DNA of 1,761 nucleotides from Escherichia coli (GTDB lineage Bacteria > Pseudomonadota > Gammaproteobacteria > Enterobacterales > Enterobacteriaceae): assembly GCF_003334315.1 (NCBI RefSeq), contig NZ_QOWR01000113.1. One strand, 5' to 3'. Positions 1,022 to 1,468 of the stretch are shown in pieces (the stretch's first letter is position 1; each line of letters starts with the position of its first letter). The notes below the pieces were generated by a model. It made no database searches and was not told where the DNA came from. It saw only the letters and a program-made list of their open reading frames with translations. Both the position numbers and the translations under genes were made by a program.

Positions 1022-1162
1022 AATTTTTGATGATGACTTCAATTAGTAGAACATGTATTTTTCGATAAAAGCACCGATGACTTTTTCATGAAGTTCTACA
1101 GAGCGCGAGAAACAGATGGTTCTGCGAGTCAGACGTTTGATTCAGGTTCTCAGGGGCAGATT

Positions 1163-1177
1163 CAGGGAAAGATCATC
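1163..1177 (+). repeat. 15-bp perfect direct repeat, copy 1 (cagggaaagatcatc)
   Basis: Identical 15-mer recurs at 1326-1340. Confidence 0.8.
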
Positions 1178-1325
1178 GTGTGCCGTAGGCACAAAGATGC
1201 AAAACGGGACATTTTGCATGTAATAAGCATAAGCTTGTGAAGAGATGGTGGCAGGCCCACCGGGATCTGCTGTCGGAAGTCGGTCCCAAACAACCCCGGC
1301 TGCTGTGGTAAAGAGCCATGGTAGC

Positions 1326-1340
1326 AGGGAAAGATCATCA
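1326..1340 (+). repeat. 15-bp perfect direct repeat, copy 2 (cagggaaagatcatc)
   Basis: Identical to 1163-1177, 163 bp downstream. Confidence 0.8.
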
Positions 1341-1442
1341 GAAGTTCACTTTTTGTACTAAACAATTCGCATTTTATGTTTAAAAATTGAGATATTCCTT
1401 ATTACCTAAAGCTGTTTTTTATTGCTTACACATGATCAAATA

Positions 1443-1462
1443 CTCCTTACATAATTAAGGAG
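1443..1462 (+). promoter_or_regulatory. Hairpin pairing an anti-SD (ctcctta, 1443-1449) with the transposase SD (taaggag, 1456-1462); putative translational occlusion element
   Basis: Perfect 7-bp inverted repeat with a 6-nt loop (cataat). The 3' arm is the Shine-Dalgarno of the ATG at 1469. Confidence 0.4.
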
Positions 1463-1468
1463 AACAAA

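Follow-up and report, generated by a model that had tools for sequence, protein, structure and literature searches.

Mobile-element debris, including a fragment assigned to the group II intron E.c.I9, upstream of an intact H-repeat in an Escherichia coli Rhs locus

The stretch of E. coli DNA analysed in this work, referred to at its full length of 1,761 nt as the window, belongs to an Rhs locus of the RhsE type, adjoining ydcC and pptA. It contains the features listed below (for comparison with the near-identical locus L001, window position = L001 coordinate minus 3796):

1-204, minus strand: terminal part of a canonical IS1, with terminal repeat and start of insA, located in the tip of the RHS core gene
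205-615, plus strand: C-terminal tip of the gene for the RHS element core protein (PGAP CDS at 203-4411 of L001)
627-1021, plus strand: dsORF-e4, an RHS downstream ORF, frameshifted
1029-1162, minus strand: divergent IS1-family element, reduced to its 3'-terminal 134 bp (Pfam, tblastn, DNA identity to L003)
1163-1177, plus strand: 15-nt stub of an H-repeat left terminus, CAGGGAAAGATCATC, with an exact second copy at 1325-1339
1178-1324, plus strand: group II intron, nt 1-147, assigned to E.c.I9 of class D (Rfam RF01999, identity to the intron of L004)
1325-1761, plus strand: H-repeat (ISAs1 family, ISEc1/ISEc5 type), of which the window includes nt 1-437, with the left terminal repeat at 1325-1339, a 144-nt leader and the transposase ORF from 1469 (start placed where homology begins in unrelated contexts)

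In genomes without the canonical IS1 insertion the match to the window begins at 205, and the minus-strand ORF at 106-174 is identical to one of the frames read in the IS1 copy of locus L002. The junction 204/205, at which IS1 enters the RHS core tip, is absent from 5,426 complete E. coli genomes, thus the insertion looks strain-specific. The frameshift in dsORF-e4 lies in a run of seven A residues (793-799), where the near-identical L002 has eight, and splits the gene into one ORF up to 812 and another at 812-1021; the split is common to the window and L001.

The right boundary of the region of interest is set by the H-repeat. Copies of this element in unrelated contexts, including those of K-12, share the window sequence only from 1325 on, hence the left end of the element is at 1325 and not at 1341, where the preliminary description of this DNA had placed it, 16 nt off. 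The same description had called the element intact; its ORF starts at 1469. Only nt 1-437 fall in the window. In L001 the H-repeat encompasses 1291 bp (5121-6411), its terminus recurs in inverted form at element positions 1281-1291, and its ORF (5265-6401) encodes an intact ISAs1 transposase (ydcC) of 378 aa. The ydcC H-repeat of K-12 is 99.8% identical over 1291 bp. The left end of the downstream H-repeat is complete and carries an unoccupied E.c.I9 homing site at 1339/1340.

Elements of the ISAs1 family end in a CAGGG... terminus. In the window, the 15-nt terminus CAGGGAAAGATCATC is found twice, an occurrence produced by 0/200 shuffles, and the upstream copy directly abuts the IS1-family fragment. 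At every other locus examined the intron is likewise preceded by an identical stub. Within 1163-1324 the stub alone corresponds to an ISAs1-type terminal repeat, no element body follows it, and when 1163-1324 was compared with the full H-repeat in a sensitive search at the DNA level, nothing but the 15-nt terminus was revealed.

Directly after the stub, at 1178, the sequence GTGTG agrees with the 5' GUGYG motif, and the Rfam search identified the following region as group II domain I-IV (RF01999, score: 63.5 bits; gathering score: 36; E-value 2.5e-11). The RF01999 alignment extends to 1351, with low posterior probability and broken pairs past 1324. A complete 1887-nt intron was found in strain C10 (L004; RF01999, score: 92 bits), with ltrA at 3503-4825 and domain V/VI (RF00029) at 4827-4902. 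H-repeat nt 1-15 lie to the left of this intron and nt 16 onward to its right, which places the insertion point between nt 15 and nt 16 of the H-repeat. Nt 1-147 of this intron are 100% identical to the window fragment (the comparison used the identical stretch of L001). The fragment, which makes up about 48% of 1037-1341, retains some of domain I and has neither the remaining ribozyme nor ltrA nor domains V/VI. Without domain V/VI and the reverse transcriptase it should be unable to splice or move, and judging from its sequence we regard it as dead, with no plausible activity. An alternative proposal would involve no intron and see in 1163-1324 the terminal repeat and leader, hence the left end, of a different ISAs1-family variant, given that its start at 1163 is a perfect H-repeat terminus and that this sequence always lies upstream of an H-repeat. 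Such a variant is, however, very improbable: GTGTG follows nt 15, the score exceeds Rfam's gathering threshold for group II domain I, and in L004 the sequence runs unbroken into a full intron that possesses ltrA and domain V/VI and gives way to H-repeat nt 16 onward.

With the intron fragment recognized, the stub becomes its 5' exon, therefore it is the vestige of an earlier, intron-invaded copy of the H-repeat. The suggestion in the preliminary description that an older related element preceded the intact H-repeat at this spot is thus correct, by virtue of the 15-nt left-terminus copy at 1163-1177 and only by virtue of it. The form in which the older element was thought to survive, i.e. as a coding remnant, fared differently. 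The plus frames of 1037-1341 had been interpreted as a frameshifted, stop-riddled ISAs1/H-repeat transposase remnant around the first catalytic Asp. The quoted peptides do exist (QIQGKIIVCRRHKDAKRDILHVISISL in the plus-strand ORF 1088-1240 and SEVGPKQPRLLW in the plus-strand ORF 1237-1311), a 23-aa match to YdcC residues 108-130 exhibits 39% identity, and a second short motif is roughly collinear with it. However, this similarity is within chance: in tblastn, YdcC reached at best 9/23 identities and 18.9 bits in the region, among 1000 shuffles of 1037-1341 that preserved the dinucleotides 64 scored as high or higher, and the fused quoted peptides matched no Pfam family, even at E<=10. The NCBIfam scan of six frames, with stops as X, reported no match either; it overlooked the genuine IS1 piece too and is accordingly weak evidence against the remnant, and the Pfam search with clean peptides took its place. 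The terminal-repeat stub and intron domain I, the latter matching the intact intron at 100% identity, explain all the matched DNA, the DNA of 1163-1324 resembles no part of the H-repeat body outside the 15-nt terminus, and the 'IQGKII' at the start of the match is the translated 15-nt H-repeat terminal repeat, while the remainder lies in non-coding intron RNA sequence. No plus frame is significantly similar to ISAs1 transposases in the profile and tblastn searches, which is the outcome that the preliminary description had itself named beforehand as refuting. We therefore consider the coding-remnant reading of this stretch wrong, with a very small residual probability.

The segment to the left of the stub, 1029-1162, is of different origin. 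On the minus strand it contains the last ~37 codons of a transposase with one in-frame stop (translation ...NLPLRT, stop, IKRLTRRTICFSRSVELHEKVIGAFIEKYMFY, stop) and a terminal inverted repeat at about 1029-1052. The Pfam search identified DDE_Tnp_IS1 (PF03400; E-value 3.7e-15, model positions 93-131 of 131), and 253 PF03400 proteins were matched by the piece, the best 120 of the 253 at 68-97% identity. In a tblastn comparison, the C-terminus of canonical IS1 InsB matched 1064-1162 with 18/33 identities and 39.3 bits, and none of 1000 shuffles was as good. An intact relative, a 231-aa IS1-family gene on the E. marmotae plasmid pEM148 (L003), is 93% identical at the DNA level at its end to 1031-1162, and this homology breaks off exactly at 1162. 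The IS1-type terminal repeat is present, as window positions 1029-1052 align with the L003 terminus (GGTGGTGACTCCAATTAGTAGAAC vs GATGATGACTTCAATTAGTAGAAC; the comparison with the canonical IS1 repeat was made by eye). PGAP annotates an IS1 family pseudogene at 1043-1141. The piece thus shares with IS1 and iso-IS1 elements the DDE_Tnp_IS1 match and the IS1-like terminal repeat, but it is 5'-truncated to 134 bp, interrupted by an in-frame stop and only 54.5% identical to canonical InsB at the amino acid level over 33 residues. A complete element (insA, frameshift site, both ends) is not present, only the last 134 bp, and the fragment accounts for about 44% of 1037-1341. That a frameshifted minus-strand IS1-family pseudogene covers the whole of 1037-1341 has a negligible probability despite the clear InsB C-terminus at 1064-1162, as DNA and protein homology to the intact relatives ends sharply at 1162/1163, the relatives have TGKIFTQRIER upstream of NLTLRTRIKRL where the window has VPTAHDDLSL, and 1163-1324 is explained by other elements.

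The region between dsORF-e4 and the intact H-repeat, 1029-1324, is accordingly composed of an IS1-family tail, an H-repeat stub and an intron fragment, and the breakpoints that delimit the pieces, 1162/1163 and 1324/1325, were located by sequence comparison. We interpret it as non-functional mobile-element debris made of three unrelated pieces (probability about 0.93). It is ordinary, already-described debris of an E. coli Rhs locus, and as such known biology.

[quoted passage not shown] The same work reports E.c.I9-tr1 fragments of 193 bp in Sakai, IAI1, SE11 and others, and the 159-bp fragment E.c.I9-tr2 in BL21 and REL606 (PMC3522654, Table S2/S3). The published E.c.I9-tr2 at 242510-242668 of REL606 coincides exactly with the 159-nt relative of the window fragment, and the 193-nt fragment of Sakai lies in the same rhs-pptA locus as the window, likewise with an IS1-family fragment ahead of it. 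As the published coordinates fit the relatives of 1178-1324, the intron in the window is identified as E.c.I9, and we assign it, on the strength of these coordinates, as a shorter, 147-nt allele. The allele shares with tr1 and tr2 the intron class, the target (Rhs IS, i.e. H-repeat/ISEc1-5) and the retention of a 5' fragment, and differs in its length of 147 nt, absent from the list in PMC3522654.

Sakai and L006 also exhibit a tandem arrangement of H-repeat termini. In L006 (2988-3016) and L009 (Sakai; 2801-2829), an extra 13-nt stub is found, with CAGGGAAAGATCA and then CAGGGAAAGATCATCG preceding the 193-nt intron fragment, in contrast to the single terminus stub in the window. Intron-less stubs stack as well, and the same is seen for a diverged left end in REL606 and L007: an 81-nt copy of the H-repeat left leader, 73% identical, lies directly upstream of the stub and the 159-nt fragment (L007 2920-3000; L010, REL606, 1914-1994), giving three stacked left ends at a yafV-linked Rhs remnant.

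A comparison with K-12 is instructive with respect to the pattern of a diverged copy upstream of an intact one, which the preliminary description had proposed for this window. At the same chromosomal locus (rhsE ... ydcC-pptA), the yncI-ydcC pair of RhsE does have an older ISAs1-type element immediately upstream, a relic of about 1 kb in the form of the ~67% identical ISAs1 pseudogene yncI with its own CAGGGCAAGATCATG terminus. In the window, however, only the 15-nt stub is present and the IS1-family and intron fragments occupy the space, thus the pattern holds for K-12 and not for the DNA analysed here. In the K-12 locus (L008) yncI lies at about 3471-4640 and ends ~30 nt short of the ydcC H-repeat.

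Partial E.c.I9 copies are nearly all shortened from the 3' side. We examined eight 3'-truncated classes (43, 97, 147, 159, 193, 460, 757 and 862 nt), from five or more loci. The 15-nt 5' exon is kept in 8/8 of them, and in seven of the eight (43, 97, 147, 159, 193, 460 and 757 nt) H-repeat nt 1-3 is found within 0-2 nt of the fragment end; in the 862-nt class, a piece of IS256 lies between the intron fragment and the H-repeat. With the exception of CFT073, the H-repeats that follow the seven joints are complete or near-complete. In CFT073 (L005, 3001-3290) the order is stub, 97-nt intron fragment, ~104 nt of H-repeat leader and then an IS630-family ISEc40 gene, in surroundings containing fragments of defence-system genes, e.g. 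BREX and restriction enzymes. Further E.c.I9 5' fragments are found in L012 (1287-1747, 460 nt), L013 (1287-2036, 757 nt), L014 (1350-2148, 862 nt) and L011 (2501-2546, 43 nt). Those of L013, L014 and L011 are situated in O-antigen or sugar-biosynthesis clusters and not in Rhs loci; in L012, L013 and L011 the fragment is joined directly to the start of the H-repeat, which is not the case in L014.

Several other intron copies were noticed in the course of the analysis. In L004 the H-repeat hosting the full-length intron ends at nt 917 (4903-5804), adjoining pptA, and the same is seen in L016 (5452-6353), where the entire pptA-nhoA chromosomal segment is carried on a 219-kb plasmid. A distinct but related intron fragment that shares 83-89% identity with E.c.I9 nt 80-339 is found in L015 (1378-1625) and about 145 further records, in many genomes upstream of a truncated ISAs1 gene; it may represent E.c.I2 or another relative.

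The anatomy of 1029-1324 can be read directly from the comparisons described above, and it allows us to propose an order of events. An IS1-family element would have inserted downstream of dsORF-e4, after which an H-repeat would either have inserted into this element or have caused a deletion reaching it, with the joint exactly at CAGGG. E.c.I9 would then have homed between nt 15 and 16 of the left end of that H-repeat, and finally a transposase-made joint would have placed nt 1 of a complete H-repeat at intron nt 147, with loss of the 3' part of the intron and of the old H-repeat body. A plain deletion inside an intron-bearing H-repeat gives no second terminus, therefore a second H-repeat end must have taken part in the last step. 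Two routes for the loss fit the data: a second H-repeat of the same orientation may have inserted into the intron before homologous recombination between the 1.3-kb bodies, or the end of a tandem downstream H-repeat copy may have driven an adjacent deletion. An intermediate of the kind of an H-repeat flanked by two intron halves was not found among the matches listed, nor was an orphan 3' part of the intron after an H-repeat right end; the sole 5'-truncated copy among the matches listed (L016) corresponds to a plasmid-capture breakpoint.

The same consideration applies to the other truncation classes: because the second terminus cannot be created by plain deletion, the joints between intron fragments and H-repeats look transposase-made, and the data suggest that such joints have accumulated at H-repeat left ends. 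To our knowledge, transposition of an H-repeat has never been demonstrated directly. It is conceivable, if on our estimate somewhat doubtful, that H-repeats repeatedly insert into, or delete up to, their intron-invaded siblings and in this way regenerate an intact left end. The literature searched contained no description of this behaviour, and the regular joining of intron fragments to nt 1 of an H-repeat may be an undescribed pattern.

The pieces discussed here are widespread. Among 5,426 complete E. coli genomes, a near full-length E.c.I9 is present in 84 and any piece of it in about 2,700, and most of 1163-1468 (stub, intron fragment and H-repeat leader) is found in 2,381, while the junction of the window itself occurs in at most 243. 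None of the matches listed carries an annotated feature on the stub-fragment-leader stretch. The chief value of the present analysis is thus in annotation, as it identifies widespread intron pieces without an annotated feature, and it illustrates that a short peptide resemblance can mislead, here by way of a translated terminal repeat and ribozyme RNA. The sole point of wider interest is the regular joint between intron fragments and H-repeat nt 1, which may record past transposition of H-repeats; if true, it would reveal an interplay between insertion sequence and intron that explains the decay of E.c.I9 from its 3' side.
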